A stretch of 64,000 nt of DNA from Escherichia coli (GTDB lineage: Bacteria > Pseudomonadota > Gammaproteobacteria > Enterobacterales > Enterobacteriaceae), in assembly GCF_044324785.1 (NCBI RefSeq), contig NZ_CP172127.1; one strand, 5' to 3'. Position numbers and translations under genes: made by a program. Below are positions 1 through 54,071 of the stretch, one piece after another (the first letter of the stretch is position 1; each line of letters begins with the position of its first letter). The notes under the pieces were generated by a model, which saw only the letters and a list, made by a program, of their open reading frames with translations, ran no database searches and had not been told where the DNA came from.

Positions 1-2192
1 ATACTGTCGCCACTGTCACACCGGCACAATTGCGCCAATTTTATCAACGCTGGTATCAACCAAATAATATGACCTTTATCGTGGTCGGCGATATTGACAG
101 TAAAGAAGCGCTGGCGCTGATTAAGGATAATTTAAGTAAGCTTCCGGCTAACAAAGCCGCTGAAAATCGCGTCTGGCCGACAAAAGCAGAAAACCACCTG
201 CGCTTTAATATCATTAATGATAAAGAAAACCGGGTGAACGGCATCGCTCTCTATTATCGTCTGCCAATGGTACAAGTGAACGATGAGCAAAGCTTTATCG
301 AACAAGCTGAATGGAGCATGTTGGTTCAGCTGTTCAATCAGCGTCTGCAGGAACGCATACAGTCGGGCGAGTTGAAGACTATTTCTGGCGGCACTGCGCG
401 CAGCGTTAAAATTGCATCCGATTATCAGTCGCTGTTTTTCCGTGTAAATGCACGAGACGATAATATGCAGGATGCTGCGAATGCATTAATGGCAGAGTTG
501 GCAACTATTGATCAGCATGGTTTTTCTGCTGAAGAACTCGATGATGTCAAATCTACCCGCCTCACCTGGCTGAAAAATGCGGTTGATCAGCAAGCTGAAC
601 GTGATTTACGTATGCTGACCAGTCGCCTGGCATCCAGCTCATTAAATAATACGCCGTTCTTGTCGCCGGAAGAGACATATCAACTTTCGAAACGTCTGTG
701 GCAGCAAATTACCGTGCAAAGTCTGGCGGAAAAATGGCAGCAGTTAAGAAAGAACCAGGATGCATTTTGGGAGCAAATGGTAAACAATGAGGTTGCTGCC
801 AAAAAAGCATTGTCTCCTGCGGCTATCCTGGCGCTGGAAAAAGAGTACGCCAACAAAAAGCTGGCGGCTTACATCTTCCCAGGCAGAAATTTATCGTTAA
901 CAGTAGACGCTGACCCACAGGCGGAAATTAGCAGCAAAGAAACGCTGGCTGAGAATCTGACATCATTAACACTTTCCAATGGTGCCAGGGTTATTCTGGC
1001 AAAATCCGCGGGTGAAGAGCAAAAGCTACAAATTACTGCCGTATCTAATAAAGGCGATTTAAGTTTCCCTGCGCAGCAAAAATCACTTATCGCGCTGGCA
1101 AATAAAGCAGTAAGCGGAAGCGGCGTTGGTGAACTCTCCTCTTCCAGCCTGAAACGCTGGAGTGCGGAAAACTCGGTAACCATGAGCAGTAAAGTCAGTG
1201 GCATGAATACATTGCTCTCTGTTAGCGCGCGGACTAATAACCCTGAACCTGGTTTCCAGTTGATTAACCAGCGAATCACTCACAGCACGATTAATGATAA
1301 TATTTGGGCATCGCTACAAAATGCTCAAATTCAGGCGTTGAAAACGCTCGACCAGCGTCCAGCGGAGAAATTCGCCCAGCAGATTTATGAGACGCGCTAT
1401 GCTGATGACCGCACGAAATTACTGCAAGAAAATCAGATTGCACAGTTTACTGCCGCAGATGCGCTGGCTGCCGATCGCCAGTTGTTTTCATCTCCAGCGG
1501 ATATCACGTTTGTCATTGTCGGTGATGTCGCAGAAGACAAACTTCTTCCGTTAATTACGCGTTACTTAGGATCAATCAAACACTCTGATTCGCCATTAGC
1601 CGCAGGTAAACCATTAACTCGCGCGACGGACAATGCATCGGTTACGGTAAAAGAACAAAATGAACCTGTGGCACAGGTTTCACAGTGGAAGCGTTATGAT
1701 TCCCGGACACCTGTAAATCTGGAGACGCGTATGGCGCTCGATGCTTTTAACGTCGCACTGGCAAAAGATCTACGCGTTAATATTCGTGAACAGGCATCTG
1801 GAGCATACAGCGTTTCTTCTCGCCTCTCGGTTGATCCTCAGGCCAAAGATATCAGTCATTTGCTGGCTTTTACTTGTCAACCAGAACGACATGATGAACT
1901 GTTAACGTTAGCGAATGAAGTGATGGTTAAGCGTCTGGCTAAAGGGATCAGTGAGCAAGAACTGAATGAATACCAGCAAAACGTTCAGCGCAGCCTCGAT
2001 ATCCAACAGCGTAGCGTTCAACAATTAGCGAACACCATTGTAAATAGTCTTATTCAATATGACGATCCTGCAGCATGGACTGAGCAGGAGCAATTGTTGA
2101 AACAAATGACGGTAGAGAATGTTAACACTGCCGTTAAACAATATCTTTCTCATCCGGTAAATACTTATACCGGAGTATTATTGCCAAAATAA
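1..2192 (+). CDS. pqqL: M16-family zinc peptidase PqqL, C-terminal ~730 codons; 5' end lies upstream of the window
   Basis: Reading frame is open from base 3; track ORF 30..2192; translation matches the PqqL/insulinase-family C-terminal region; followed by the AT-rich gadB promoter region. Confidence 0.85.
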   Translation, partial: TVATVTPAQLRQFYQRWYQPNNMTFIVVGDIDSKEALALIKDNLSKLPANKAAENRVWPTKAENHLRFNIINDKENRVNGIALYYRLPMVQVNDEQSFIEQAEWSMLVQLFNQRLQERIQSGELKTISGGTARSVKIASDYQSLFFRVNARDDNMQDAANALMAELATIDQHGFSAEELDDVKSTRLTWLKNAVDQQAERDLRMLTSRLASSSLNNTPFLSPEETYQLSKRLWQQITVQSLAEKWQQLRKNQDAFWEQMVNNEVAAKKALSPAAILALEKEYANKKLAAYIFPGRNLSLTVDADPQAEISSKETLAENLTSLTLSNGARVILAKSAGEEQKLQITAVSNKGDLSFPAQQKSLIALANKAVSGSGVGELSSSSLKRWSAENSVTMSSKVSGMNTLLSVSARTNNPEPGFQLINQRITHSTINDNIWASLQNAQIQALKTLDQRPAEKFAQQIYETRYADDRTKLLQENQIAQFTAADALAADRQLFSSPADITFVIVGDVAEDKLLPLITRYLGSIKHSDSPLAAGKPLTRATDNASVTVKEQNEPVAQVSQWKRYDSRTPVNLETRMALDAFNVALAKDLRVNIREQASGAYSVSSRLSVDPQAKDISHLLAFTCQPERHDELLTLANEVMVKRLAKGISEQELNEYQQNVQRSLDIQQRSVQQLANTIVNSLIQYDDPAAWTEQEQLLKQMTVENVNTAVKQYLSHPVNTYTGVLLPK

Positions 2193-2454
2193 TAACAGCC
2201 TCGTCAACACATCGTTGGCGGGGATTTTATCAATATTCGCTATTTTTATGTAATAATTTTATAAATACGTTCAAAATAATAACCAAGTACTAATAGTGAT
2301 ATTTTAAGGTCTGATTTTTACGTGATAATTCAGGAGGCGTAGAAAGTGCATAAAAATAACAACATAAAACACCTTGCCACCACCCAAGAATTCAATAATA
2401 TATTGATTTTCAATGATAAAATATTATTCACATAATATCTCACGATAAATAACA

Positions 2455-2474
2455 TTAGGATTTTGTTATTTAAA
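2455..2474 (+). promoter_or_regulatory. GAD box (20-bp GadE-dependent activation motif) upstream of gadB
   Basis: Sequence TTAGGATTTTGTTATTTAAA lies about 80 bp upstream of the gadB ATG, matching the GAD box described for gadA/gadBC promoters. Confidence 0.6.
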
Positions 2475-2553
2475 CACGAGTCCTTTGCACTTGCTTACTT
2501 TATCGATAAATCCTACTTTTTTAATGCGATCCAATCATTTTAAGGAGTTTAAA

Positions 2554-3954
2554 ATGGATAAGAAGCAAGTAACGGATTTAAGGTCGGAACTACTCGATTC
2601 ACGTTTTGGTGCGAAGTCTATTTCCACTATCGCAGAATCAAAACGTTTTCCGCTGCACGAAATGCGCGATGATGTCGCATTCCAGATTATCAATGACGAA
2701 TTATATCTTGATGGCAACGCTCGTCAGAACCTGGCCACTTTCTGCCAGACCTGGGACGACGAAAATGTCCATAAGTTGATGGATTTATCCATTAACAAAA
2801 ACTGGATCGACAAAGAAGAATATCCGCAATCTGCAGCCATCGACCTGCGTTGCGTAAACATGGTTGCCGATCTGTGGCATGCGCCTGCACCGAAAAATGG
2901 TCAGGCCGTTGGCACCAACACCATTGGTTCTTCCGAGGCCTGTATGCTCGGCGGGATGGCGATGAAATGGCGTTGGCGCAAGCGTATGGAAGCCGCAGGT
3001 AAGCCGACCAACAAACCAAACCTGGTGTGCGGTCCGGTACAAATCTGCTGGCATAAATTCGCCCGCTACTGGGATGTGGAGCTGCGTGAGATCCCTATGC
3101 GCCCCGGTCAGTTGTTTATGGACCCGAAACGCATGATTGAAGCCTGCGACGAAAACACCATCGGCGTGGTGCCGACTTTTGGCGTGACCTACACCGGTAA
3201 CTATGAGTTCCCGCAGCCGCTGCACGATGCGCTGGATAAATTCCAGGCCGACACCGGTATCGACATCGACATGCACATCGACGCCGCCAGCGGTGGCTTC
3301 CTGGCACCGTTCGTCGCCCCGGATATCGTCTGGGACTTCCGCCTGCCGCGTGTGAAATCGATCAGTGCTTCAGGCCATAAATTCGGTCTGGCTCCGCTGG
3401 GCTGCGGCTGGGTTATCTGGCGTGATGAAGAAGCGCTGCCGCAGGAACTGGTGTTCAACGTTGACTATCTCGGTGGTCAGATTGGGACTTTCGCCATCAA
3501 CTTCTCCCGCCCGGCGGGTCAAGTGATTGCACAGTACTATGAATTCCTGCGCCTTGGTCGTGAAGGCTATACCAAAGTACAGAACGCTTCCTACCAGGTC
3601 GCTGCCTATCTGGCGGATGAAATCGCCAAACTGGGGCCGTATGAGTTCATCTGTACTGGTCGCCCGGACGAAGGCATTCCGGCGGTTTGCTTCAAACTGA
3701 AAGAGGGTGAAGATCCGGGATACACCCTCTACGACCTCTCTGAACGTCTGCGTCTGCGCGGCTGGCAGGTTCCGGCCTTCACTCTCGGCGGTGAAGCCAC
3801 CGACATCGTGGTGATGCGCATTATGTGTCGTCGCGGCTTCGAAATGGACTTTGCTGAACTGTTGCTGGAAGACTACAAAGCCTCCCTGAAATATCTCAGC
3901 GATCACCCGAAACTGCAGGGTATTGCCCAGCAGAACAGCTTTAAACATACCTGA
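2554..3954 (+). CDS. gadB: Glutamate decarboxylase beta (PLP-dependent), 466 aa
   Basis: Translation from [21 protein letters not shown]... matches GadB end to end; SD TAAGGAG 7 bp upstream; the track ORF begins at an upstream in-frame ATG (2485) that I regard as non-native. Confidence 0.95.
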
Positions 3955-4109
3955 TAACGTTTAACGGTAACGGTGTCCCGAAACGCACCCGTTTCGGGAC
4001 AATTTCCAAAGTCTGTTCACTGGCATTAGCAACGGAAAATATTGTTCTGAATACGCTACAGAACAAAACAGGTGCGGTTCCGACAGGAATACCGTTTTAG
4101 GGGGATAAT

Positions 4110-5645
4110 ATGGCTACATCAGTACAGACAGGTAAAGCTAAGCAGCTCACATTACTCGGATTTTTTGCCATAACGGCATCGATGGTAATGGCTGTTTATG
4201 AATACCCTACCTTCGCAACATCGGGCTTTTCATTAGTCTTCTTCCTGCTATTAGGCGGGATTTTATGGTTTATTCCCGTGGGACTTTGTGCTGCGGAAAT
4301 GGCCACCGTCGACGGCTGGGAAGAAGGTGGTGTCTTCGCCTGGGTATCAAATACTCTGGGGCCGAGATGGGGATTTGCAGCGATCTCATTTGGCTATCTG
4401 CAAATCGCCATTGGTTTTATTCCGATGCTCTATTTCGTGTTAGGGGCACTCTCCTACATCCTGAAATGGCCAGCGCTGAATGAAGACCCCATTACCAAAA
4501 CTATTGCAGCACTCATCATTCTTTGGGCGCTGGCATTAACGCAGTTTGGTGGCACGAAATACACGGCGCGAATTGCTAAAGTTGGCTTCTTCGCCGGTAT
4601 CCTGTTACCTGCATTTATTTTGATCGCATTAGCGGCTATTTATTTGCACTCCGGTGCCCCCGTTGCTATCGAAATGGATTCGAAGACCTTCTTCCCTGAC
4701 TTCTCTAAAGTGGGCACCCTGGTTGTATTTGTTGCCTTCATTTTGAGTTATATGGGCGTTGAAGCTTCCGCAACCCACGTCAATGAAATGAGCAACCCAG
4801 GGCGCGACTATCCGTTGGCTATGTTATTGCTGATGGTGGCGGCAATCTGCTTAAGCTCTGTTGGCGGTTTGTCTATTGCGATGGTCATTCCGGGTAATGA
4901 AATCAACCTCTCCGCTGGGGTAATGCAAACCTTTACCGTTCTGATGTCCCATGTGGCACCGGAAATTGAGTGGACGGTTCGTGTGATCTCCGCACTGCTG
5001 TTACTGGGTGTTCTGGCGGAAATCGCCTCCTGGATTGTTGGTCCTTCTCGCGGGATGTATGTCACAGCGCAGAAAAACCTGCTGCCAGCGGCATTCGCTA
5101 AAATGAACAAAAATGGCGTACCGGTAACGCTGGTCATTTCGCAGCTGGTGATTACTTCTATCGCGTTGATCATCCTCACCAATACCGGTGGCGGTAACAA
5201 CATGTCCTTCCTGATCGCACTGGCGCTGACGGTGGTGATTTATCTGTGTGCTTATTTCATGCTGTTTATTGGCTACATTGTGTTGGTTCTTAAACATCCT
5301 GACTTAAAACGCACATTTAATATCCCTGGTGGTAAAGGGGTGAAACTGGTCGTGGCTGTTGTCGGTCTGCTGACTTCAATTATGGCGTTTATTGTTTCCT
5401 TCCTGCCGCCGGATAACATCCAGGGTGACTCTACCGATATGTATGTTGAATTACTGGTCGTTAGTTTCCTGGTGGTACTTGCCCTGCCCTTTATTCTCTA
5501 TGCTGTTCATGATCGTAAAGGCAAAGCGAATACCGGCGTCACTCTCGAGCCAATCAACAGTAAGAACGCACCAAAAGGTCACTTCTTCCTGCACCCGCGT
5601 GCACGTTCACCACACTATATTGTGATGAATGACAAGAAACACTAA
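4110..5645 (+). CDS. gadC: Glutamate:GABA antiporter (APC family), 511 aa
   Basis: Full-length match to GadC ([26 protein letters not shown]...); multi-pass hydrophobic profile; immediately downstream of gadB. Confidence 0.95.
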
Positions 5646-17498: not shown

Positions 17499-17534
17499 GA
17501 CGCGGCATCCGGCTATTGCATGTCTGCGGAAACG

Positions 17535-18425
17535 TTATGCGTCATAGGTTTTTTTTAACGTTTCCATCAACGCCTGCGCCGCAGTAGAAAGCTTATGGTG
17601 TGACGAACGCAGTACGCCTACTCGTCGCTCAATCACTGGATTATCCAGTTCCAGACACACTGCGCCCAGTTCGCTCATCTGCCTGCGGCACAGCGCAGGC
17701 ACAGCGCTTCCTCCCAAACCGTTTGCCACCAGCCGCCCAACCGTAACCAGTTGATGGCTTTCCAGCGCCACTTCCAGTTGCGTTCCACTTTGTGCCAACT
17801 GCTCCTCCAGCATCAACCTGACGGCTGACGGTCGCTGGAGGGTGATAAAATCGAGCGTCAGCAAATCCCGCCAACTCACGCGTTGCCGATTTGCCAGTCG
17901 TGAATCGGCTGGAACAATAGCGACAAACCGATCCACGCCCAGTGGGGTAAAATGCACATGGCCGCAATAGTCAGGTTCAAAGGCAATACCCATCTCCACA
18001 CGCCCTTCGCTCACCATTTCGATCACCTGCTCATTCACCACATCGTGCACGGTGACATTAATCCCTGAATAACAATCGCGGAAGGTTTTCAGCACCGGAG
18101 GCAGAACGTTGGCTGCAAATGACGGCATCGCTGCCACCGAGACTTTGCCCCGCCTGAGCGTGAATCGCTGACGCATGGCCTCCTCAGTGTTATCCCAGTC
18201 AGCCAGCAAAGGCCGTGCCATCGACAATAGCGTTTCCCCCTCCTGGGTTAATGTCACTTTTCGCGTAGTACGCAGCAGTAAAGCGCCCCCTAAGGCATCT
18301 TCCAGTCCTTTAATGGCAAGACTTAGCGCAGGCTGCGACATATTCAGCCGTTCACTGGCATGGGCAAAGTTCAGAGTGTGAGCTACCGCTAAAAACGCGC
18401 GTAACTGTTTGATGCTCATTTTCAT
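17535..18425 (-). CDS. LysR-family transcriptional regulator, 296 aa, divergent from the ketone-body operon
   Basis: N-terminal HTH (MKMSIKQLRAFLAVAHTLNFAHASERLNMSQPALSLAIKGLE) plus LysR substrate-binding fold; divergently oriented 140 bp from the next operon. Confidence 0.85.
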   Translation of the reverse strand: MKMSIKQLRAFLAVAHTLNFAHASERLNMSQPALSLAIKGLEDALGGALLLRTTRKVTLTQEGETLLSMARPLLADWDNTEEAMRQRFTLRRGKVSVAAMPSFAANVLPPVLKTFRDCYSGINVTVHDVVNEQVIEMVSEGRVEMGIAFEPDYCGHVHFTPLGVDRFVAIVPADSRLANRQRVSWRDLLTLDFITLQRPSAVRLMLEEQLAQSGTQLEVALESHQLVTVGRLVANGLGGSAVPALCRRQMSELGAVCLELDNPVIERRVGVLRSSHHKLSTAAQALMETLKKTYDA

Positions 18426-18566
18426 CTGGCACTCCGTTAACCTACTGAATACATTTAATTAACATTATATTGATAAATAATACAAATGAATGAGTCACAA
18501 ATTTAAAATTAACAAATCATTTTTTGCCCTTAATGATGTTGAAAAGGACAACTGGAGGGCAACTGT

Positions 18567-19274
18567 ATGGCTGGGTTGGATAAACGGGTCGCTACGTATC
18601 ACGAGGCGCTTGAAGGACTTACCAATGAGATGACGATTCTGGCAGGAGGTTTTGGCCTGTGCGGCATCCCGGAGAATCTGATTGCTGAAGTTCGCCACCG
18701 TGGAGTAACCGGATTAACGGTGGTTTCCAATAACTGTGGCGTAGATGGTTTTGGACTGGGTGTACTACTGGAAAGCCGACAGATCCGTAAAGTCGTCGCT
18801 TCTTATGTTGGCGAGAATGCTTTGTTTGAAAAACAGGTGCTTAACGGCGAACTGGAGGCGATTCTCACACCACAAGGAACCCTGGCAGAACAACTGCGCG
18901 CAGGCGGCGCGGGTATCCCGGCGTTCTTTACTGCCACCGGTTACGGTACTCCCGTTGCCGAAGGGAAAGAAGTCCGCGAATTCAACGGTCGCCCGTACAT
19001 CATGGAACAGGCTATCACCGGTGATTTTGCCCTGGTCAAAGGCTGGAAAGCCGACTGGTACGGCAACGTGATTTATCGTCATACCGCGCAAAACTTCAAC
19101 CCACTGATGGCGGCTGCCGGAAAAATCACCGTGGTGGAAGTGGAAGAAATCGTGCCACCTGGTGAACTTGATCCTGCCGCTATCCATACCCCGGGGATTT
19201 TTGTTAATCGCGTCATTCAGGGGCAATTTGAAAAACGCATTGAACAACGCACCCTTAGCCGCAAAGGAGCCTGA
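18567..19274 (+). CDS. 3-oxoacid CoA-transferase subunit A, 235 aa
   Basis: Conserved [12 protein letters not shown] motif of CoA-transferase family I alpha subunits. Confidence 0.85.
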
Positions 19275-19276
19275 CC

Positions 19277-19933
19277 ATGTTAACCCGTGAACAAATGGCG
19301 ATGCGAGTCGCCCGCGAATTGCGCGATGGCTATTACGTCAATCTCGGCATTGGTATCCCGACCCTGGTGGCAAACTACATTCCTGACGGGATGGATGTGA
19401 TGTTGCAGTCAGAAAACGGTTTGCTGGGAATGGGCGCATTTCCTACGGAAGACGAACTGGACGCCGACATGATTAATGCCGGTAAACAAACCGTTACCGC
19501 GCGGAAAGGCGCGGCAATTTTCGATTCGGCGCAATCATTCGCCATGATCCGTGGCGGTCATGTGGATCTGACTGTACTTGGCGCATTTGAAGTGGATGTG
19601 AATGGCAACATTGCCTCATGGATGATCCCCGGCAAGATGGTTAAAGGCATGGGCGGTGCCATGGATCTGGTTGCCGGTGCCGAGAATATTATTGTGGTAA
19701 TGACCCACGCCTCCAAATCCGGCGAATCCAAACTGCTTCCTGACTGTACCCTTCCATTGACCGGCGCCGGATGCATCAAACGCGTCTTAACCGACCTTGC
19801 TCTGCTGGAAATTGCTGACGGAGCTTTCATTCTGCGCGAGCGCGCGCCGGGAATCAGCGTTGCGGAAATCATCGCCAAAACCGCCGGTAAGTTGTTTGTG
19901 CCGGAACATGTCCCGGAAATGCAATTCAACTGA
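19277..19933 (+). CDS. 3-oxoacid CoA-transferase subunit B, 218 aa
   Basis: Beta-subunit signature with catalytic glutamate context (LQSENGLLGMG); starts 3 bp after the subunit A stop. Confidence 0.85.
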   Translation: MLTREQMAMRVARELRDGYYVNLGIGIPTLVANYIPDGMDVMLQSENGLLGMGAFPTEDELDADMINAGKQTVTARKGAAIFDSAQSFAMIRGGHVDLTVLGAFEVDVNGNIASWMIPGKMVKGMGGAMDLVAGAENIIVVMTHASKSGESKLLPDCTLPLTGAGCIKRVLTDLALLEIADGAFILRERAPGISVAEIIAKTAGKLFVPEHVPEMQFN

Positions 19934-19942
19934 GGAATCACC

Positions 19943-21148
19943 ATGCAGGACGTTGTTATTGTTGCCGCTACGCGCACACCGATTGGCTGTTTTCATGGCG
20001 CTCTCGCCTCACTTTCTGCGGTTGATCTCGGCGCTGCCACCATCCGTTCATTGCTGGAGAAAACAGCACTTGCAGCAGAACAGATCGACGAAGTGATTTT
20101 TGGTCAGGTCCTGACTGCCGGAAGCGGACAAAATCCGGCACGGCAATCGGCGCTCAAAGCCGGGTTAAGCCACGATACACCCGCCGTTACCATCAACCTG
20201 GTATGTGGTTCCGGTCTGAAAGCAGTACACCAGGCCGTACAGGCGATCCGTTGCGGTGATGCACAGATAATTATCGCAGGTGGCCAGGAAAGCATGAGTA
20301 ACGCGCCCTATTTTATTGATGGCGCACGGGCAGGTTTACGCCTCGGGCATACCAGCATGAAAGACAGCGTGGTGCATGACGGACTATGGGACGCTTTCAA
20401 TGATTACCACATGGGCATTACTGCAGAAAACCTGGCGCAAAAATATGCCATCAGTCGCGAGCGACAGGACACATTCGCGCTACGTTCTCAGCAAAAAGCC
20501 GCTGCCGCAATGGAAGCCGGGCGCTTTGCAGACGAAATTACTCCGGTCAGCGTACCACAAGGTAAAAAACCACCACGCAGGGTAAATACCGACGAACAAC
20601 CACGTTCCGGGACGCAACTGGAAAAACTAGCACAACTGAAACCGGCCTTTCTTCCGGGGGCGGGAAGCGTCACCGCAGGAAATGCTTCTTCCATCAATGA
20701 TGGTGCCGCCGCAGTCATGTTAATGCGCGCCAGCAAAGCTGCCGAACTTGGCCTCCCAGTGCTGGCTCGGGTGGCTGGTTATGCCGTTTCTGGCGTCGAT
20801 CCTGCCTTTATGGGCATTGGTCCGGTCGCCGCTACCCGCGAATGTCTTAAGCGTTGCGGATGGACGCTGGAAGATATTGATCTTATTGAAGCCAACGAGG
20901 CTTTCGCAGCGCAGGCGCTGGCCGTTGGCGACGAACTGAACTGGGATTGCGACAAAGTGAATGTTAACGGCGGCGCAATCGCACTTGGGCATCCTATTGG
21001 CGCTTCCGGTTGCCGCATTCTGGTCACTCTCATTTATGAAATGGCGCGACGTAATGCGCAAAAAGGGCTGGCGACGCTGTGCGTCGGTGGCGGTCAGGGC
21101 GTGGCGCTGACACTGGAAAGAACCACAGGAGAACACCATGCAAACTGA
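19943..21148 (+). CDS. Acetyl-CoA C-acetyltransferase (thiolase II), ~400 aa
   Basis: Thiolase motifs [11 protein letters not shown] (active-site Cys) and C-terminal [14 protein letters not shown]. Confidence 0.85.
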
Positions 21149-22061
21149 ACAATTTGCGGTACTGGGCGCCGGATTGATGGGCGTGGGGATTGCCACTCAT
21201 TTCGCCCGCTTTGGTCATGATATCTGGCTGTACGATACCGAGCAGAGCCGGATTGCAGAAATCCACGTAGTTGCAGGCGGAATTCTTGATGAGCTGATTA
21301 GCTGCGAACAGTTTACTGCCCCGGAAAAAGAGAATGTGCTTAAACGTCTGCACGGCACGACTTCTCTTGCAGACATCGCCGACTCGCAACTACTGATTGA
21401 GGCGATCCCGGAGCGACTTGAACTAAAACACGCATTATATACCGAGCTTGAAACGCTTATTTCTCCTGAGGCCATTGTCGCCAGCAATACCAGCGGTCTG
21501 CCGCCCGATGATCTGGCCGCGAAGATGCGCTACCCGCAACGACTGCTGATCGCCCATTTCTGGCATCCGCCGCACTTCATTCCACTTGTGGAGATTATCC
21601 CCGGCAGCGTTACCGAGCCAAAGCATTTGCACTGGCTGCAACACTTGCTTGTGTCACTGCAACTGGAAGCAGTGTTGCTGGATCGCGCTGCGCCAGGATT
21701 TGTCGGCAACCGTCTGCAATTTGCACTGTTGCGTGAAGCCCTGCATATCGTAAAAAGCGGCATCGCCAGTGCAGAAGTGGTGGATCAGGTGATGCGCGCC
21801 TCGCTTGGGCGACGTTATGCCATGGTCGGCCCGCTGGAGGCCGCCGACATGACCGGACTTTCGACGGTGCAGGATATTTGTCGCCATCTGCTCCCTGAAC
21901 TAGCGACTGGCAGCGACATGATGTCATTAGTTGCCGAAAAAGTGGAACGTGGAGACATCGGCGTACGTAGCGGTCAGGGATTTTACTGCTGGGATGAATC
22001 GCGGAAGCAGTACATCCAGCAGCGTCGGGAACATCAACTTCGCTTCGCCTTTAAAACATAA
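21138..22061 (+). CDS. 3-hydroxyacyl-CoA dehydrogenase (Hbd-like, NAD-binding), 307 aa
   Basis: N-terminal Rossmann motif [12 protein letters not shown]; overlaps the thiolase stop, suggesting translational coupling. Confidence 0.75.
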
Positions 22062-22106
22062 CTTCTCTCGCTGTACCCACTATAACAACGATATTGAGGA
22101 GTCCCG

Positions 22107-23498
22107 ATGAGTGTATTAATCGCCCTTGCCGCGCTTGGGCTGCTAATGCTGGCAGCCTATCGCGGATACAGCGTTATCCTTTTTGCCCCCATCGCAGCAT
22201 TAGGCGCTGTTCTTGTCACCGATCCGGGGGCCGTTGGCCCAGCATTTACCGGCCTGTTCATGGAAAAAATGGTCGGCTTCGTGAAATTGTACTTCCCGGT
22301 GTTTCTGCTCGGGGCCGTGTTCGGAAAACTGATTGAACTTTCAGGATTTTCTCGTTCGATTGTCGCTGCTGCAATCAACATTCTCGGCCGGCGGCATGCG
22401 ATTCCGGTGATTGTGCTGGTATGTGCATTACTCACCTATGGCGGAGTGTCGCTGTTTGTGGTGGCATTTGCCGTTTATCCGTTCGCGGCTGAATTGTTCC
22501 GCCAGAGTAATATCCCCAAACGGCTTATACCGGCAACGGTGGCCCTCGGAGCATTCTCTTTTACTATGGACGCTCTGCCCGGCACGCCACAAATTCAGAA
22601 CATTATTCCCACCAGTTTCTTTGGCACCAACGCCTGGGCCGCGCCGTGGCTGGGGCTTATTGGTTCACTGTTTATCATTGCCGTCGGGCTTATCTATCTG
22701 GAACGGCAGCGTCGTAAAGCACAGGCAAAAAATGAAAGTTACGGCACAGAGTTACTTAATGAACCTGAAACGCCGGACAACATCAATTTACCGAACCCAC
22801 TCATTGCGATTTCACCATTGATTCTGGTGGGGCTGTTGAACTTGTTGTTTACCTGGTGGATCCCTGTTTGGTACGGTGCGAGCCACCAACTGGAGTTGCC
22901 GGGACTTACTGCCCCGATTACCACAGATGTCGCCAAAATCACCGCAATCTGGGCCGTCGAAGCTGCGCTCATTGCCGGAATTTTGCTGGTAGTGATTTTT
23001 GGATATCGCAATATTCATGGAAGACTGGCAGAAGGAAGCCGTACAGCGGTAGGCGGCGCAATTCTGGCTGCGATGAACACCGCCTCAGAATATGGCTTCG
23101 GTGCGGTTATCGCCGCCCTACCCGGTTTTCTGGTGCTCTCAAAGGCGCTGGCCGCCATTCCTGATCCATTACTCAACGAAGCCATCAGCATCACCACACT
23201 TGCCGGAATTACCGGTTCAGCGTCCGGCGGGATGAGTATTGCTCTTGCGGCTATGTCCGACACTTTTATTGCCGCTGCGCACGCTGCCAATATTCCACTG
23301 GAAGTTTTTCACCGCGTGGCATCTATGGCCAGTGGCGGCATGGATACATTGCCCCATAACGGCGCTGTGATCACCCTGCTGGCAATTACTGGGCTGAGTC
23401 ACCGTCAGGCTTACGGCGGCATCTTCGCAATTACGATCATTAAAAGTCTGGCCGTGCTGTTTATCATCGGCGTGTACTACACCACCGGCATTGTCTAA
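22107..23498 (+). CDS. GntP-family permease (predicted 3-hydroxybutyrate/short-chain hydroxy-acid:H+ symporter), 463 aa
   Basis: Highly hydrophobic multi-pass protein with GntP-like architecture; embedded in the catabolic operon. Confidence 0.65.
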   Translation: MSVLIALAALGLLMLAAYRGYSVILFAPIAALGAVLVTDPGAVGPAFTGLFMEKMVGFVKLYFPVFLLGAVFGKLIELSGFSRSIVAAAINILGRRHAIPVIVLVCALLTYGGVSLFVVAFAVYPFAAELFRQSNIPKRLIPATVALGAFSFTMDALPGTPQIQNIIPTSFFGTNAWAAPWLGLIGSLFIIAVGLIYLERQRRKAQAKNESYGTELLNEPETPDNINLPNPLIAISPLILVGLLNLLFTWWIPVWYGASHQLELPGLTAPITTDVAKITAIWAVEAALIAGILLVVIFGYRNIHGRLAEGSRTAVGGAILAAMNTASEYGFGAVIAALPGFLVLSKALAAIPDPLLNEAISITTLAGITGSASGGMSIALAAMSDTFIAAAHAANIPLEVFHRVASMASGGMDTLPHNGAVITLLAITGLSHRQAYGGIFAITIIKSLAVLFIIGVYYTTGIV

Positions 23499-23509
23499 GG
23501 AAAATCATC

Positions 23510-24280
23510 ATGAATTTACAAGGTAAAACTGCGCTGGTGACGGGCTCCACCAGCGGTATCGGACTCGGTATTGCTCAGACACTGGCAAACGCTGGCGCGC
23601 AAGTGATCCTCAACGGCTTCGGTGATGTTGACGCGGCAATCAATGCGGTTTCTCGTATGGGTAAAACGCCTGGCTATCATGAGGCAGACCTCAGCGATGA
23701 ATCGCAAATTATCAACATGATGGCCTACGCACGGCGGGAATTTGGCGGTGTGGACATTCTGGTGAATAACGCAGGGATCCAGTATGTCTCCCCGGTTGAA
23801 TCTTTCCCTGTAGAAAAATGGAACGCCATTATCGCTATCAATCTCTCTTCTGTCTTTCACACCACGCGTCTGGCACTGCCAGAAATGCGCACTCGTAACT
23901 GGGGTCGGATCATTAACATTGCCTCTGTGCATGGGCTGGTAGCGTCGAAAGACAAATCAGCTTATGTTGCGGCAAAACATGGCGTGGTGGGACTCACAAA
24001 GACCATTGCTCTGGAAACTGCGCAGACGGGTATTACCTGCAACGCGCTCTGCCCTGGCTGGGTGCTGACGCCGCTGGTACAACAGCAGATTGATAAGCGC
24101 ATTGCGCAAGGCGAAGATGCGGAAAGCGCGCGTGACGCCTTACTGGCAGAAAAACAGCCTTCTCGTGAATTTGTGACTCCGCAACAACTGGGTGAACTGG
24201 CGCTGTTTCTCTGTTCGGATGCGGCAGCACAAGTGCGTGGGGTGGCGTGGAATATGGATGGCGGTTGGGTAGCGCAGTAA
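23510..24280 (+). CDS. D-3-hydroxybutyrate dehydrogenase (classical SDR), 256 aa
   Basis: SDR motifs TGSTSGIGLGIA (cofactor binding) and YVAAKHG (YxxxK); length and motifs typical of BdhA. Confidence 0.8.
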   Translation: MNLQGKTALVTGSTSGIGLGIAQTLANAGAQVILNGFGDVDAAINAVSRMGKTPGYHEADLSDESQIINMMAYARREFGGVDILVNNAGIQYVSPVESFPVEKWNAIIAINLSSVFHTTRLALPEMRTRNWGRIINIASVHGLVASKDKSAYVAAKHGVVGLTKTIALETAQTGITCNALCPGWVLTPLVQQQIDKRIAQGEDAESARDALLAEKQPSREFVTPQQLGELALFLCSDAAAQVRGVAWNMDGGWVAQ

Positions 24281-30566: not shown

Positions 30567-33500
30567 TTACGCCTTCTCGATGTTTACTAAGAACGCTTTA
30601 TATTCCGGCGTTTGCGAGTTTGCATCACCGACATTAGGCGTCAGAGTGTTAGCGATATAACCTTTGCGCGCGACACCCTCAAAGCCCCAGTGGATTGGAA
30701 TACCCACCGTTTCAACCTGCTGACCGTTTACATTCAGCGGCTTCAGACGGCGCGTTACCACAGCCACCGCGCGGATAAAGCCACGCTTGCTGGATACGGT
30801 GACACGGTCGCCATTGGCGATGCCTTTCGCCGCCGCCAGCGTTTCGCTGATTTCTACAAACTGTTCCGGCTGAGCAATTGCGTTGAGCAACGCGTGCTTG
30901 GTCCAGGTGTGGAAGTGCTCGGTCAGACGATAGGTCGTACCCACATACGGGAACTGCTCTTTTTTACCCATCCGCAGCGCGTCTTGTTCATACAGACGAA
31001 CCACCGGGTTAGACACCACGTTCGGATGCAGCGGGTTAGTGCCCAGCGGCGTTTCGATTGGCTCGTAGTGTTCCGGGAACGGACCTTCCGCCATTTTGTT
31101 GATGGCAAACAGACGTCCCATCCCTTCCGGCTGCATGATAAACGGCCCGGTTGGCGTACCCGGTGCGGCATTGCCGAAGTCAGGAATATCGTTACCCGTC
31201 CACTTGCTGCCGTTCCACTGGATCAGCATCCGTTTCGGATCCCACGGTTTACCGTTGATATCCGCCGAAGCACGGTTGTAGAGTACGCGACGGTTGAGCG
31301 GCCACGCCCAGGCCCATCCCAGCGTATTCCCCAGACCGGACGGGTCGGAGTTATCGCGGTTAGCCATCTGGTTGCCCTGCTCTGTCCAGCTACCGGTGTA
31401 TATCCAGCAAGACGATGCGGTTGTACCGTCATCACGCAGATGCGCAAAGCTACTCAGCAACTGACCTTTCTTCGCAATCAGCACGCCATTAGCATCATAG
31501 AGATCTTCCAGCGCATAGCCGTTATTCTCTTTCGCCACTTCGTCAGACTGCGGTTCGTGCGGCTGCTTGTAGTTCCAGCTCATCTTCATCAGCGGTTCTA
31601 CGCCTTTACCACCTTCGGCCTGGTACAGCTCGCGCAGATGATGGTAGATACCCGCCAGAATTTCGCCGTCGTTACGCGCTTCGCCCGGCGCGTCCTGACC
31701 TTTCCAGTGCCACTGCAACCAGCGACCGGAGTTAGCAATAGAACCATCTTCTTCAGCAAAGCAGGTCGAAGGCAGACGGAATACTTCAGTCTGAATAGAC
31801 GCCGGATCGACATCGTTCGACTCGCCGTGGTTCTGCCAGAAGGTAGAAGTTTCAGTCACCAGCGGATCGATAACCACCATGTACTTCAGCTTGCTCAGGC
31901 AGCTAACCACTTTGTTTTTGTCCGGGAAGGACGCAACCGGGTTAAAGCCCTGGCAGAAATAACCGGTGACTTTGCCTTCATCCATCATGTTGAAATACTT
32001 GATGACGTCGTAGGTCTGGTCCCACTTAGGCAGCCAGTCGTAGCCCCAGTTGTTCTCTTTCTGCGCGGCATCGCCGTAGAAAGATTTCATCAGGCTAACG
32101 AAGAACTTCGGATAGTTGCTCCAGTAGTTCACCTGATCAGCCAGCGTCGCTTTCGGCGTGTTCGCTTCCAGATACGACTGCAAATCAACCTGTTTTTCTG
32201 ACGGCAGCGTCAGATAACCCGGCAGGCTGGTAGAGAGCAGGCCTAAGTCGGTCAGGCCCTGAATGTTGGAGTGACCACGCAATGCGTTCACACCGCCACC
32301 GGCCATACCCATGTTACCGAGCAGTAACTGGATCATCGCCATAGTACGGATGTTCTGCGCACCCACGGTGTGCTGCGTCCAGCCCAGCGCGTACAGGAAG
32401 GTGGTTGTGCGATCCGGTGCGCTGGTGGAGGCCAGCACTTCACACACTTTCAGGAAGTCGGCTTTTGGCGTACCACAGATGTTTTCTACTACGTCTGGCG
32501 TGTAGCGGGAAACGTGCGCTTTCAGCAGGTTCCACACACAGCGCGGATGAGTCAGCGTGTCATCGCGTTTCGCATAGCCGTTTTCATCGAACTGATAGTT
32601 CCAGGACGATTTATCGTACTGGCGTTTTTCAGCGTCATAACCGCTGAACAGGCCATCTTCGAAAGCAAAATCATCACGCACCAGCAGGCTGGCGTTAGTG
32701 TAATGCTTAACGTATTCGGCGTTGATTTTGTTGTTTTCGATCAGGTAGCGCAAAACGCCAGACAGGAACGTAATGTCCGTACCGGAACGAATAGGTGCGT
32801 AAATATCCGCCACAGAAGCGGTACGCGTAAAACGGGGATCGACAACGATCAAGGTTGCATCGTTGTTGTTTTTCGCTTCCATCGCCCAGCGGAAACCGAC
32901 GGGATGCGCTTCAGCAGCATTACCGCCCATCACCATTACGACGTTAGCGTTTTTGATATCCACCCAGTGGTTGGTCATCGCACCGCGACCAAATGTTGGA
33001 GCAAGACTTGCTACCGTTGGTCCGTGTCAGACGCGCGCCTGGTTGTCTACCGCCAGCATACCGAGGGAGCGGGCAAATTTTTGAGTCAGCATCCCGGTTT
33101 CGTTGCTGGCACCGGAGGCACACAGCATACCGGTAGAAAGCCAACGGTTTACCGTTACGCCCTGCTCGTTCTTTTCAATAAAGTTAGCGTCACGGTCAGC
33201 TTTCATCAGCTTCGCAATACGGGAGAATGCTTCTTCCCAGCTAATGCGCTGCCATTTGTCAGAACCTGGCGCACGATATTCCGGGTAGCGCAGACGGTTT
33301 TCGCTGTTGACGTAATCCAGCAAACCGGCCCCTTTCGGGCACAGCGCACCACGGCTTACCGGATGATCCGGGTCACCTTCAATGTGATAAATTGCTTCTC
33401 TGGCGTTTTTCGCGCCATCACCCAGGCTATACATCAATAGCCCGCAACCTACGGAACAGTATGTGCAGGTGTTACGGATCTCTTTAGCGCGTAATAATTT

Positions 33501-49780: not shown

Positions 49781-50626
49781 TTATTTTCCCGCCTCCGGGT
49801 GCGTATCAAACGCCGCCATCACCAGCGCTAACTCATCCACGGTAAAGCCATGTTTCGCATCATCCACCCCCAGACCAAACTGTTCCTGCATCACGGCATA
49901 TAACGACGCCACATCTGGTAGATTTCGCTGCTCCACCGCGTGCCCATTTTCATAATGGGTAAAATGAAAATTGGTCAGTGTCAGCTTGCCGCCGTCCGGC
50001 AAATGGCGGCACATCAGCAAATGATGGCGAAAATGCGACTGCGGCCAGTGCGCAGACCAGAAATTGCCCATTACATAATCGCTTTGTTGCTGCTCGCAGA
50101 GATCAAAACGGTACATCGACTGCCAGTGCTGATGATGATTAAACTGCAACACCCAATCATCACCCGCCTGTAACAACCGATACTCTCCGTGTGGCGTGAT
50201 CTGCACGAGATCGGGAACTAAACGAATCGGCGCGGTTAGCGTCTGTCCACCGAAACCGACATCAGCAATCCATTTTTCCCCTTCCAGTTCCACCAACAAC
50301 AAACGATGGGTGCGCGGCGGTAATGCTGGCGGATTTGATAACACTACGCGCCCTAACAAGCTGCGAACGTTAAACCCCAGCTCGCGTAACACCCGCTCAA
50401 ACACGCCATTCTGCTCAAAACAGTAACCGCCACGACGGGCTATCACCAGTTTCTCTTCCAGCGATTGATCATCAAGCTGTATTTCCCTCGGCAGCAAAAC
50501 GTCGAGATTTTCAAACGGAATGGTGCAATTGTGTTTCAGGTGCAATGCACGCAGCGTATCAATATTGGCCGCAGCAGCTCCCGACCAGTTAATACGGGCA
50601 AAATAATGATTCAGAATGGGCGTCAT
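49781..50626 (-). CDS. nhoA: N-hydroxyarylamine O-acetyltransferase, 281 aa
   Basis: Matches NhoA (arylamine N-acetyltransferase family). Confidence 0.9.
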   Translation of the reverse strand: MTPILNHYFARINWSGAAAANIDTLRALHLKHNCTIPFENLDVLLPREIQLDDQSLEEKLVIARRGGYCFEQNGVFERVLRELGFNVRSLLGRVVLSNPPALPPRTHRLLLVELEGEKWIADVGFGGQTLTAPIRLVPDLVQITPHGEYRLLQAGDDWVLQFNHHQHWQSMYRFDLCEQQQSDYVMGNFWSAHWPQSHFRHHLLMCRHLPDGGKLTLTNFHFTHYENGHAVEQRNLPDVASLYAVMQEQFGLGVDDAKHGFTVDELALVMAAFDTHPEAGK

Positions 50627-50798
50627 CAGGCGTTTCCCTTAGTGGTTTTCTCAACTTATAACCTGGAATAGACGCCGCACCGGCTATTTTGTGCGATCGC
50701 GGACATGCATCACGTTTGCAAATCGCCAATCCCGTTAATTTCGTTACTTATTGCGTTACGGGCTACGCTTAAAAAAACCTTCTTCGCGAGGCGATACC

Positions 50799-51368
50799 AT
50801 GAGCCGATTTATCCCCGTCGAATTACACCATGCCAGCCGTCTGTTAAATCATGGCCCAACTATTTTGATAACAACTTTTGATGAAAAATCACAGCGACGT
50901 AATGTGATGGCTGCGGCCTGGTCGATGCCGGTAGAGTTTGAACCGCCACGTGTTGCGATCGTGGTAGATAAATCGACATGGACCAGGGAGTTGATTGAAC
51001 GTAACGGTAAATTTGGCATCGTTATCCCGGGCGTTGCAGCAACTAACTGGACGTGGGCGGTGGGAAGTGTGTCGGGGCGTGATGAAGATAAGTTTAATTG
51101 CTATGGTATTCCGGTTGTGAAAGGTCCGGTACTTGGTTTGCCTCTGGTCGAGGAAAAATGTCTGGCGTGGATGGAGTGTCGCCTGCTACCTGCGACTTCT
51201 GCGCAAGAAAAATACGACACACTGTTTGGCGAGGTAGTATCAGCAGCGGCAGACGCACGGGTATTTGTCGAAGGCCGCTGGCAGTTTGATGATGATAAAC
51301 TCAATACACTACATCATTTAGGTGCTGGCACGTTTGTTACCAGCGGCAAGCGAGTCACCGCGGGCTAA
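50799..51368 (+). CDS. yddH: Flavin reductase-like protein, 189 aa
   Basis: MSRFIPVELHHASRLLNHGPTILITT...; internal ATG of track ORF 50751..51368. Confidence 0.8.
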   Translation: MSRFIPVELHHASRLLNHGPTILITTFDEKSQRRNVMAAAWSMPVEFEPPRVAIVVDKSTWTRELIERNGKFGIVIPGVAATNWTWAVGSVSGRDEDKFNCYGIPVVKGPVLGLPLVEEKCLAWMECRLLPATSAQEKYDTLFGEVVSAAADARVFVEGRWQFDDDKLNTLHHLGAGTFVTSGKRVTAG

Positions 51369-51997
51369 AGAATCATATGCAGCAACCAAGTTGCTTAAGC
51401 AATGTTTCAATATGAGTTAAAAGCATATTTTATCTCACGATTGCATATTTTTAGTGAAGATTAATTTATCCTCACCAACATCATAGTAATTGCGTATTAT
51501 AGCTTCATTGATAAAGCCCTGTTTTGTATAAAATGCGCGGGTGGCACTAAAATCGATATGGCTGGAAGTCTCTACTAAAAGTAGTCTTGCGTGATTGGGA
51601 CAGGTCAAGAAAAAGCAGTTTTGCAGTTTTTTATTTTAGGGCACAGTTGCGAAAATTGAATCCCTTATGGACTAATGTGAGAAAATCCCGAGGTATGACT
51701 GTTTTGATATAGTGGACAATCAAGCGTCTCGAATTAACAATGAATTTCAGGTGCCAAGCCTTACAATTTGTAGCATGACGGATATAGGACAACATTAGGA
51801 AATCGGACAGAAAATTCATCATAATAAAATGACAACTTATCTCTTTCTCTCACTTTCTGAGAAATTTCACAAAAGTATAAACTGAGCCAATATGCCTTTA
51901 TATATAAAAAATACTCATGTTTATTATTATCGGAAAAAGCCAAGATTTGATTAAGGTGTATTAGTCGCGACTTGATCTGACACTGAGCCCTGAAAGG

Positions 51998-52243
51998 TTG
52001 AGAGTTACCGGTTTTGATATGGGTGTCGAATCCTTATACAAAACACGGGTAACTCTCATGCTTCATACTACCAATCCCGTTATCAAACACAAAGCCAGTT
52101 TGCTCAATCTGGCTGAAGAACTCAGCAACGTATCAAAAGCCTGTAAAATCATGGGCGTTTCGCGTGATACGTTTTATCGTTACCGCGAACTGGCCGATGA
52201 AGGCAGGGAAAGATTACGAAAGCCCGCTCCCTGCAAGGACTGA
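51998..52243 (+). pseudogene. Transposase N-terminal HTH fragment (IS remnant), truncated at the H-repeat element
   Basis: Short ORF with a transposase-like HTH (KACKIMGVSRDTFYRYRELADEG) ending where the H-repeat gene ends; no catalytic domain follows. Confidence 0.4.
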
Positions 52244-53350
52244 CGCCAGGTAGTTTCTGTCCATGGCTGCTTTTCGCATCTTACGTCTTAACCCTGCCTT
52301 GAATACCTTATCATTCGTTAAAATATTAATAGCGATGTGCCGTATCCCTGAAAATAATTCTGCTGCATTTCCTCTTCTTATTTTGCAGTCGTCTTCATTC
52401 ATTACCACGTCCAGACGCCAGTGCAGCTTATTCTCCACGTGCCAGTGATTTCGGATCGCTGTGGCGAACTTCTCAGCGGTTAAATCAGCAGAACTGATGT
52501 AATATCTGACCGTCATTTCTGGCTCTTTCTTTTGTTCTGCTATTATGGACCGAAAGGAGACTGCCACGCATAATTTCTTCAGTCCTTTCCATTCAAACGT
52601 GAAATCAATAAGTTCATCAGGGACATCGCAAACAATATGAAGACGGATTTCTTCTCTGCCTTGACTTTTTTCACTAATTGCGTAACTGTCATGCTCTGGA
52701 TTATTTAATTCTTTCAGTGGGAATTTTTCCTCAAAGGCTTTATTAAGCCGCCCCTGATTTCCTTTTACAGCGAATAAATAATCACCGCCCTGTTTTTGTA
52801 TCTTCTCTGCGATATCTTTCTGGCAACCCATCGCATCAGTTGTGATAATTTTTCCTTTAATATCCAGCATGTTAAGAAGTTCAGGGATAGCTGTGATCTC
52901 ATTGGATTTCTTATCCGTCCTGATCTGTCCGATGACAAGACTGTGCATTGTTGAGAACGCACTAATGACATGAATCGCTCCCCTGCGGCGACTCTTGTCA
53001 TAAGAATGCCGGAGCGTTTTTCCATCAATTGCAATAACGTCTTTATCATCTGAAGAATGGCAGTCACGCATCCCGTTAATAAAGCACTCGTGAAATTTTA
53101 CAGGACTGATACAGGATACAACTCTGGCAATGGTATCGTGAACAGGAATACCATTTTCAAAATCACCATATTGCTTCAAAAAATCGAGATGTGTTTCCCC
53201 AAAATCCTCTATATCTTCCCAGCATTCTGCACCAGAAATAACGGCACAAATAGTCAACAGTAGAATATCCGACAATTTATGTTCCACTTTCTAGGCTTGT
53301 CTGTAATCGGGGATAATAGAAATATGTTCCATCAATTTTTTCAGTTCCAT
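52214..53350 (-). pseudogene. H-repeat-associated (ISAs1-family) transposase gene with an in-frame amber codon at codon 20
   Basis: Track ORF 52214..53287 matches the YhhI/YdcC-type H-rpt protein from [21 protein letters not shown]...; the in-frame sequence upstream reads [29 protein letters not shown] (ATG at 53348..53350, TAG at 53291..53293, where intact homologs have TGG). Confidence 0.75.
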
Positions 53351-53630
53351 TTTGTTCTCCTTAATTATGTAAGGAGTATTTGATCATGTATACGCAATAA
53401 AAAACAGCTTTAGGTAATAAGGAATATCTCAATTTTTAAACATAAAATGCGAATTATTTAGTACAAAAAGTGAACTTCTGATGATCTTTCCCTGCCCATT
53501 GGGTTCATTAAGATCAAGAATAATGGGAATATGCTCAAGAAGACTTTGAATGTTCACCAGACGTCCTTTTCTAATATATTTAATTATTTGGCGATTAAAT
53601 TTTAATCAAATCAACAAGGTAAAACCAAGA

Positions 53631-53660
53631 TTAAAGTTGTGATGATAATCACAACTTTAA
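53631..53660. repeat. Perfect 13-bp-arm inverted repeat (TTAAAGTTGTGAT-GATA-ATCACAACTTTAA)
   Basis: Perfect palindrome in the AT-rich spacer between the H-repeat element and the rhs-associated immunity ORF. Confidence 0.5.
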
Positions 53661-53696
53661 TGATCTTCCCCTGATTCCTCCAGTCCTTTTATTTGG

Positions 53697-54071
53697 TTAC
53701 TCTAATGGTTTTATTAATTGTAAATTTTTAAATGTCATGCTTAATAAGCCATCAGAAAAATAAAGAAAAAATTTATATATCCTTTTGTTTTTTAATTTCT
53801 TTATATACCCATTACTTATATTACCTGACTTGTGATTATCGATTAACTCAGCAGAATCCATAGCGAACACTAAATCATCTACATCAGAAAATTCAACTAT
53901 CATTTTTTCCCTAATGTTCTCATTTTTATAAATGTCAATAAATAACGTCATGTTAAAATGAGATTCTTTGAATGTCGTTTTTACTTCTAACAAAACCCCA
54001 TCATGCCAGTCAATTGAACTCACAATGTCAAAATCGCTCATTATATAATCTCCATTATCCGTTTTAATCAT
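53697..54071 (-). CDS. Candidate immunity protein for the downstream Rhs C-terminal domain, ~124 aa
   Basis: Small low-GC ORF starting at or just after the stop of the rhs C-terminal domain; no signal peptide; alternative start at 54041. Confidence 0.55.

Follow-up and report, generated by a model that had tools for sequence, protein, structure and literature searches.

The 361 bp between the stop codon of pqqL (2192) and the ATG of gadB (2554) raise a simple question. Is this spacer the gadBC control region as it is known from Escherichia coli K-12, with the GAD box and the promoter in their functional arrangement, or does it merely carry a conserved motif as a passive landmark? We addressed this question in a window of 64 kb, by which we mean the whole stretch of DNA that was analysed. 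A first-pass annotation of this DNA had described a 360-bp AT-rich region upstream of gadB. Its coordinates, its AT-richness and its assignment to gadB, not gadA, agree with our results, but its length needs a small correction: according to the open reading frame list the spacer runs exactly from the pqqL stop to the gadB ATG (2193-2553), which is 361 bp. The GC content of the spacer is 28.8%, versus 50.7% for the whole 64-kb window. Three genes flank or follow the spacer:

1-2192, plus strand: 3' part of pqqL (M16 metalloprotease), from the open reading frame list; the start of the window cuts the gene
2554-3954, plus strand: gadB, glutamate decarboxylase B, 466 aa, intact, from comparison of its translation with K-12
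4110-5645, plus strand: gadC, glutamate:GABA antiporter, 511 aa, intact, from comparison with K-12

The order at pqqL matches that of K-12 (pqqL, b1494) and the annotation of the collinear strain 7CC. The product of 2554-3954 has the N-terminus of the GadB type (K3, Q5, V6, L9, S22), not that of the GadA type, and 464 of its 466 residues are identical to K-12 GadB, with D153N and D384E as the only differences. Likewise, GadC differs from its K-12 counterpart by a single substitution (I417V) across the 481 residues compared. Exactly the same GadB protein is recorded as E. coli/Escherichia glutamate decarboxylase in 407 contigs, and the exact GadC protein is also recorded as GadC of E. coli/Escherichia. 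Both genes have a very low dN relative to K-12. Intact genes with such low dN suggest that the operon is still in use.

A megablast search recovered the spacer from 5,404 of 5,426 complete E. coli genomes, once in each genome and always unannotated. Its K-12 MG1655 counterpart, NC_000913.3 1572046-1572406 (minus strand), is flanked by pqqL (b1494) and gadB (b1493), and gadB is followed by gadC (b1492). Judged from this sequence comparison, 2193-2553 is almost certainly the orthologue of the K-12 gadBC promoter region. The region thus anchors the window to the pqqL-gadBC part of the E. coli chromosome. For the first 25 kb of the window, the closest complete E. coli genome in the 5,426-genome collection matches at ~98.7%; by its sequence, the source strain is clearly E. 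coli (or Shigella), without a near-identical relative among the complete genomes.

Other parts of the window show features of their own. Between ddpF and osmC, which are adjacent in K-12, a cluster of seven genes occupies 17514-24280. It encodes a LysR regulator, CoA transferase A and B, an acetyl-CoA acetyltransferase, a 3-hydroxyacyl-CoA dehydrogenase, a GntP permease and a 3-hydroxybutyrate dehydrogenase. Collinearity over at least 80% of window 1-25000 was found in only 229 of 5,426 genomes. At the other end, 50001-64000 contains Rhs core proteins, VgrG, an ISAs1-family transposase (ydcC), nhoA and yddH; only 302 genomes are collinear here, and one strain, N3, reaches a match of 99.4%. By contrast, the top match for 25-50 kb reaches just 97.9%, a discrepancy that suggests a mosaic history of the window. 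The sole Rfam family above threshold in the window is SECIS_3 at 32974-33032 on the minus strand (84 bits), which presumably serves fdnG as its selenocysteine insertion signal. In 2100-2700, Rfam returned no family, even at E <= 1.

In K-12, GadE activates gadA and gadBC via the GAD box, whose centre is 63 bp ahead of the transcription start site, with 16 bp separating the box from the -35 element (PMC2887963). The proximal part of the spacer contains the following elements, with signed positions counted from the start site:

2455-2474, plus strand: GAD box TTAGGATTTTGTTATTTAAA, the RcsB/GadE activator site; exact 20-mer at -72 to -53, centre -62.5
2491-2496, plus strand: -35 element TTGCTT, 16 bp after the box and identical to K-12
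2503-2512, plus strand: TCGATAAATC, putative H-NS site, 9/10 relative to the high-affinity motif tCGATAAATT; overlaps the RcsB box
about 2504-2516, plus strand: RcsB box CGATAAATCCTAC, a repression site; overlaps the -10 element, has approximate boundaries and equals that of K-12 gadB
2514-2519, plus strand: -10 element TACTTT, placed by published numbering and alignment, with a 17-bp spacer from the -35 element
2526-2528, plus strand: transcription start, placed by homology; likeliest 2527, 27 nt before the ATG
2542-2547, plus strand: Shine-Dalgarno sequence AAGGAG, 6 nt before the ATG and invariant in 11 Escherichia promoters

The GAD box had been reported by the first-pass annotation at 2455-2474, and it is indeed present there on the plus strand with 0 mismatches. 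With up to 3 mismatches allowed (chance expectation 0.01), TTAGGATTTTGTTATTTAAA still has a single match in the 64 kb, and it agrees at 20 of 20 positions with the published GadE site TTAGGAttTTgTTATTTAAa (PMC4918353). Alignment with the K-12 gadB promoter, which the annotation had named as a check, was ungapped and gave an identical box at the same distance from the ATG. The annotation had also stated that a box off the conserved distance would count against its reading; this distance, from the start of the box to the ATG, is 99 nt in the window and likewise in both gadB and gadA of K-12. In line with expectation, the -35 element TTGCTT follows the GAD box after 16 bp, the distance published for gad promoters. 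Every G of the box is kept, including one whose mutation kills binding and activation, as the box is identical to that of K-12. Furthermore, the K-12 GadE ChIP-exo peak on gadBC maps to window 2448-2479, bracketing the box. The printed ChIP-exo GadE motif TTARGAWWWWAAATA gave no match to the box within 2 mismatches, because this motif is not colinear with the 20-mer. All testable features of the GAD box were found, and the view of this site as expected biology and a landmark holds: this is the known gadBC promoter. The promoter and its GAD box are an ordinary landmark here, already known, and nothing new follows from their presence.

The core promoter adds further detail. The first four bases of the -35 element (TTGC) are invariant in 11 Escherichia gadA/gadB promoters, and the last two vary in some promoters of the gadA type. 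The -10 element TACTTT is invariant in 11 Escherichia promoters, yet it matches TATAAT at only 3 of 6 positions. This poor match explains why a generic sigma-70 scan, which found 4 sites versus 3.5 expected, missed the gadB promoter. [quoted passage not shown] The RcsB box of the window shows this published C-for-G difference from gadA. Moreover, the left half of the GAD box, TTAGGATTT, recurs in inverted orientation as AAATCCTA within the RcsB box (inverted repeat I4). The left half of the GAD box was also likened to an RcsB half-site by the authors of the K-12 study (PMC2887963).

The start site was transferred from K-12, using primer names and one table, and the three sources agree within 1 nt. 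The primer numbering of the gadA fragment -101/+24 (Castanie-Cornet et al. 2010, PMC2887963) puts the start at 2527 in the window. The gadB primers -173/+77 (PMC3050690, after Tramonti 2002) give 2527 or 2528, and the ChIP-exo table of Seo et al. 2015, which lists the GadE peak at -62.5 from the start site, gives 2526.

H-NS silences the AT-rich gad region of K-12 (PMC4918353, PMC2094087). The homologous gadA sequence CGGATAAATC of the putative H-NS site at 2503-2512 is an experimentally determined H-NS site that was used to derive the motif (PMC2094087, Table 1). A second match to the motif (9/10) is found on the opposite strand at 2497-2506. One-mismatch matches to the motif are common in the window, with 14 seen versus 5 expected. 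Binding of H-NS at 2503-2512 of gadB may be inferred by analogy with gadA.

Is the proximal promoter conserved by selection, or only by descent? Our within-species alignment consisted of the window and 12 E. coli sequences, chosen in even steps down the similarity ranking. Among these 13 sequences, the 109 bp at 2445-2553 contain 2 segregating sites (2475 and 2476, just past the box; pi 0.008), and the GAD box itself is invariant. Between the window and K-12, none of the 109 positions differs, whereas synonymous divergence in the flanking genes amounts to 0.068 for pqqL, 0.133 for gadB and 0.054 for gadC. By our own arithmetic, the chance of 0 differences in 109 positions is ~7e-4 to 3e-7 at a neutral rate of 0.065-0.13. 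A somewhat longer core of 121 bp has a match in 5,406 E. coli records, and 3,756 of these reach an identity of 99% or more. On the basis of these alignments, we consider that the proximal promoter is under strong purifying selection.

The cross-species scan extended this comparison to one genome each from 100,044 species (298 Gb), searched for the exact 20-mer. It yielded 11 loci, 8 of them in Escherichia and 3 elsewhere. The 8 Escherichia loci belong to five genomes, namely E. albertii, E. whittamii, Escherichia sp. E1V33 and two named E. coli. In all 8, the box lies 79-80 nt before an ATG of the gadA or gadB type and exactly 16 nt before the -35 element; identity of the box itself is by construction in this set, since the 20-mer was selected, but the fixed spacing and the other elements are not. 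The 3 other exact matches, in metagenome-assembled genomes of Lentisphaeria/Bacteroidales, were rejected as chance: no gad gene is nearby, and their surroundings are unrelated. An estimated 0.5 or more chance matches of a 20-mer are expected in 298 Gb.

These data bear directly on the possibility that the identity of the box reflects recent common descent or gene conversion between gadA and gadB, in which case the box would be a passive landmark and not a functional site. Exchange is plausible, because the coding regions of gadA and gadB are nearly identical (5 amino-acid differences), and the selection of the Escherichia loci for an exact 20-mer makes identity of the box uninformative by itself. 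However, the box, the 16-nt spacing, the RcsB box and the -10 element have remained fixed, even though the sequences on either side of the box have changed from gadA to gadB and from species to species. Within E. coli, too, a hypervariable block adjoins an invariant box. Mutation of the box also abolishes activation by GadE in K-12 (PMC2887963). We therefore give the passive-landmark explanation almost no credence, and favour a box maintained as a functional site.

How would this promoter operate? The mechanism was established in K-12, from which the start site, the binding proteins and the directions of effect given here are taken over. Transcription of gadB-gadC would start ~27 nt before the ATG (~2527), from a weak promoter with -35 element TTGCTT and -10 element TACTTT that would be served by both sigma-S and sigma-70 holoenzyme. 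H-NS would silence this promoter via the AT-rich DNA. For activation, GadE (a LuxR-type regulator) and RcsB (a response regulator) would have to occupy the GAD box at 2455-2474 as a heterodimer. A small extra stimulation would come from GadX and GadW, two regulators of the AraC type that would bind further upstream (about 2281-2362, motif 2307-2326).

Several observations in K-12 underlie this scheme. [quoted passage not shown] Conversely, RcsB alone at high concentration binds the RcsB box and represses (PMC2887963). Messenger RNA of K-12 gadB drops ~2^6.4-fold without gadE but only ~1.5-fold without gadX, and RpoS is involved (PMC4918353). With proximal cis elements identical to those of K-12, the same mechanism is very probably the best explanation for the promoter studied here.

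An older model holds that the box is recognised by GadE alone, as a homodimer, or by GadX/GadW. Earlier papers indeed reported that GadE alone binds the box and that GadX and GadW compete (summarised in PMC2887963, PMC6128205). Yet, GadE free of RcsB neither binds nor protects the box, while RcsB and GadE together protect -50 to -76, and the earlier binding by GadE alone has been attributed to contamination with RcsB (PMC2887963). Furthermore, the K-12 GadX ChIP-exo peaks on gadBC are located at -225, -184 and +66, not at the box. This makes the older model very improbable; by current evidence, the binding species is the RcsB/GadE heterodimer and not GadE alone (PMC2887963). An alternative of a different kind is that the cis elements are intact but the circuit does not run as in K-12, either through altered gadE, rcsB, rpoS, gadX/W or evgAS-ydeO, or through a distal block that changes the control by H-NS or GadX. 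Variation in rpoS and in gad regulation is common in natural E. coli. None of the regulators named here is in the window, which extends from pqqL to the Rhs/nhoA region: gadE, rcsB, gadX, gadW, rpoS and hns are all outside its 64 kb, and so is evgAS-ydeO. Moreover, the distal block is unlike K-12 at 15 of 108 positions and the GadX-footprint stretch at 7. Against such an alteration stand the intact gadB and gadC with their very low dN, the occurrence of the window's distal haplotype in other natural strains (strain 104, CS6L), and the contribution of GadX in K-12, which is <2-fold versus >50-fold for GadE (PMC4918353). We regard an altered circuit as decidedly unlikely, and prefer the K-12 mechanism. 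The first-pass annotation had gone further, in that it concluded that acid-resistance regulation is conserved in this strain. This can be upheld for the proximal cis elements but not for the trans-acting genes, which lie outside the window, so that only the cis half of a conserved regulation is shown.

Further features of the spacer and of the start of gadB, some of them placed by mapping of K-12 data, are as follows:

2199-2223, plus strand: terminator-like hairpin of pqqL with a 10-bp stem and a 5-nt loop, followed by ATTTTAT, from the terminator scan
2281-2362, no strand assigned: stretch homologous to two upstream K-12 GadX ChIP-exo footprints (centres -225 and -184), from the ungapped alignment
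2281-2321: GadX peak with centre -225, mapped from K-12 ChIP-exo
2307-2326, plus strand: predicted GadX/GadW site, motif match AKGKCTGWTWTTWWYMYVAK/AGGTCTGATTTTTACGTGAT, 19/20; 20-nt motif from PMC4918353
2322-2362: GadX peak with centre -184, mapped from K-12 ChIP-exo
2337-2444, no strand assigned: hypervariable distal block, 108 bp, -190 to -83 from the start site
2572-2612: GadX peak with centre +66, mapped from K-12 ChIP-exo

The two upstream GadX peaks of K-12 were published at 1570302-1570342 and 1570261-1570301 (Seo 2015, Supplementary Table 3). These coordinates refer to an older genome version and were moved with an inferred offset of +1976, which puts the GAD boxes of both gadA and gadB inside their own GadE peaks. 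Across 2281-2362, the window differs from K-12 at 7 positions, none of which is inside the GadX/GadW motif. The motif at 2307-2326 sits at the junction of the mapped footprints 2281-2321 and 2322-2362, is identical to K-12 and has 2 segregating sites among the 13 strains. It is the sole match in the window at <=2 mismatches, but a weak one, as 0.26 matches are expected by chance and a match turned up in 22 of 100 shuffles.

The pqqL hairpin folds as RNA at -15.6 kcal/mol (z -5.5), versus -18.6 kcal/mol for the K-12 copy. At 2201 the window has a private T, which forms a G-U pair, whereas all 12 other strains have a C. The hairpin is 3 kcal/mol weaker than that of K-12 because of this C-to-T change.

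The distal block at 2337-2444, situated between the GadX sites and the GAD box, differs from the rest of the spacer. It contains 43 segregating sites among the 13 E. coli sequences (pi 0.146). In six strains with long flanks, pairwise K between haplotype groups was 0.12-0.23, versus a flanking dS of 0.014-0.13. The divergence of the block exceeded the dS of pqqL, gadB and gadC in 14 of 14 between-haplotype pairs (15 pairs in total), while the window and strain 104, a pair with the same haplotype, showed no excess over dS. Segments on either side of the block were less divergent than the flanking dS. The haplotype of the window in this block matches strains 104 and CS6L. One might speculate that the block consists of old, recombining regulatory haplotypes that tune the control of gadBC by H-NS or GadX differently from lineage to lineage, but we consider this a doubtful suggestion. 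Alternatively, a lack of constraint and a high mutation rate in an AT-rich spacer, or alignment noise, could account for the divergence of the block.

Within this part of the spacer, a 41-aa open reading frame on the minus strand (2330-2455) was considered as a gene and rejected, as it has stops or frameshifts in 7 of 12 other strains. The strains with a broken frame are K-12, RM13322, CFSAN061761, O157:H7 and three that share the ST131 haplotype.

A number of natural variants affect the same locus. In E. coli AR_0085 (L029, NZ_CP029741.1, ~1480-1510), the gadB promoter is joined to a truncated sulfatase gene. Homology to the window begins at 2466, so that the GAD box is gone save its last few bases; the -35 element, the -10 element and gadB are intact despite the deletion. 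In E. coli MSI001 (L030, NZ_CP076645.1, 274-1500), the insertion of an IS5-like element (ISKpn26 family) separates the GAD box from the gadB -35 element and shifts the box ~1.2 kb from the promoter. The ST131 sequences (L013/L026) have pqqL annotated as a 5'-truncated pseudogene, adjoining ydeM and ydeN, and in strain R12 gadB is annotated as frameshifted.

The gadB gene itself (2554-3954, compared with 3362-4762 of the K-12 sequence L001) has a dS of 0.133, about twice that of pqqL and gadC. Its first 116 nt are without any difference from K-12, and a cluster of differences is found at 441-459, including D153N. Possibly, this pattern is a trace of gene conversion or recombination between gadA and gadB.

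Our results show an intact cis half of the main acid-resistance circuit in this strain, with a proximal promoter identical to the one studied in K-12. The analysis also produced two mildly useful by-products: a clean phylogenetic footprint of the promoter, and a hypervariable block right beside it.

The closest known system is the gadBC locus of K-12, which has the flanking genes pqqL, gadB and gadC in common with the window. The K-12 spacer is also 361 bp long and aligns without gaps; 19 substitutions leave an identity of 94.7%. No difference is found in the last 121 bp (2433-2553), which include the GAD box, the -35 element, the RcsB box, the -10 element, the 5'UTR and the Shine-Dalgarno sequence, so that the close likeness to K-12 is confined to the third of the spacer nearest the promoter. 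In contrast, 15 of the 19 differences fall in 2337-2444, and 7 are in the GadX-footprint stretch (one position in both). Given these substitutions in the distal block and the GadX stretch, the quantitative behaviour of the promoter could differ from that of K-12.

The gadA promoter of K-12 is the system in which the RcsB/GadE mechanism was established (PMC2887963). It shares with the window an identical 20-bp box, a distance of 79 nt from box to ATG, the -35 and -10 elements and most of the RcsB box. [quoted passage not shown] The GadX/GadW site is also said, in work by Tramonti from 2006, to be nearer in gadA, at about -110 versus about -220 in gadB.

The other Escherichia species (E. albertii, E. 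whittamii and Escherichia sp. E1V33) follow the same plan, in which the exact box is followed by the -35 element after 16 nt and by the ATG after 79-80 nt. Their gadA/gadB promoters have kept the RcsB box, the -10 element and the Shine-Dalgarno sequence, whereas the spacers between these elements and the upstream sequence diverge. The only change in length is found in some of them, where the T-run that follows the -10 element is longer by one T. A more distant comparison is offered by the boxes of the RcsAB type. These are likewise asymmetric, with one half resembling an RcsB half-site and a partner protein supplying the rest. In the gad system this partner is GadE, not RcsA, and the affinity of RcsB/GadE is ~10-fold higher than that of RcsA/RcsB (PMC2887963).
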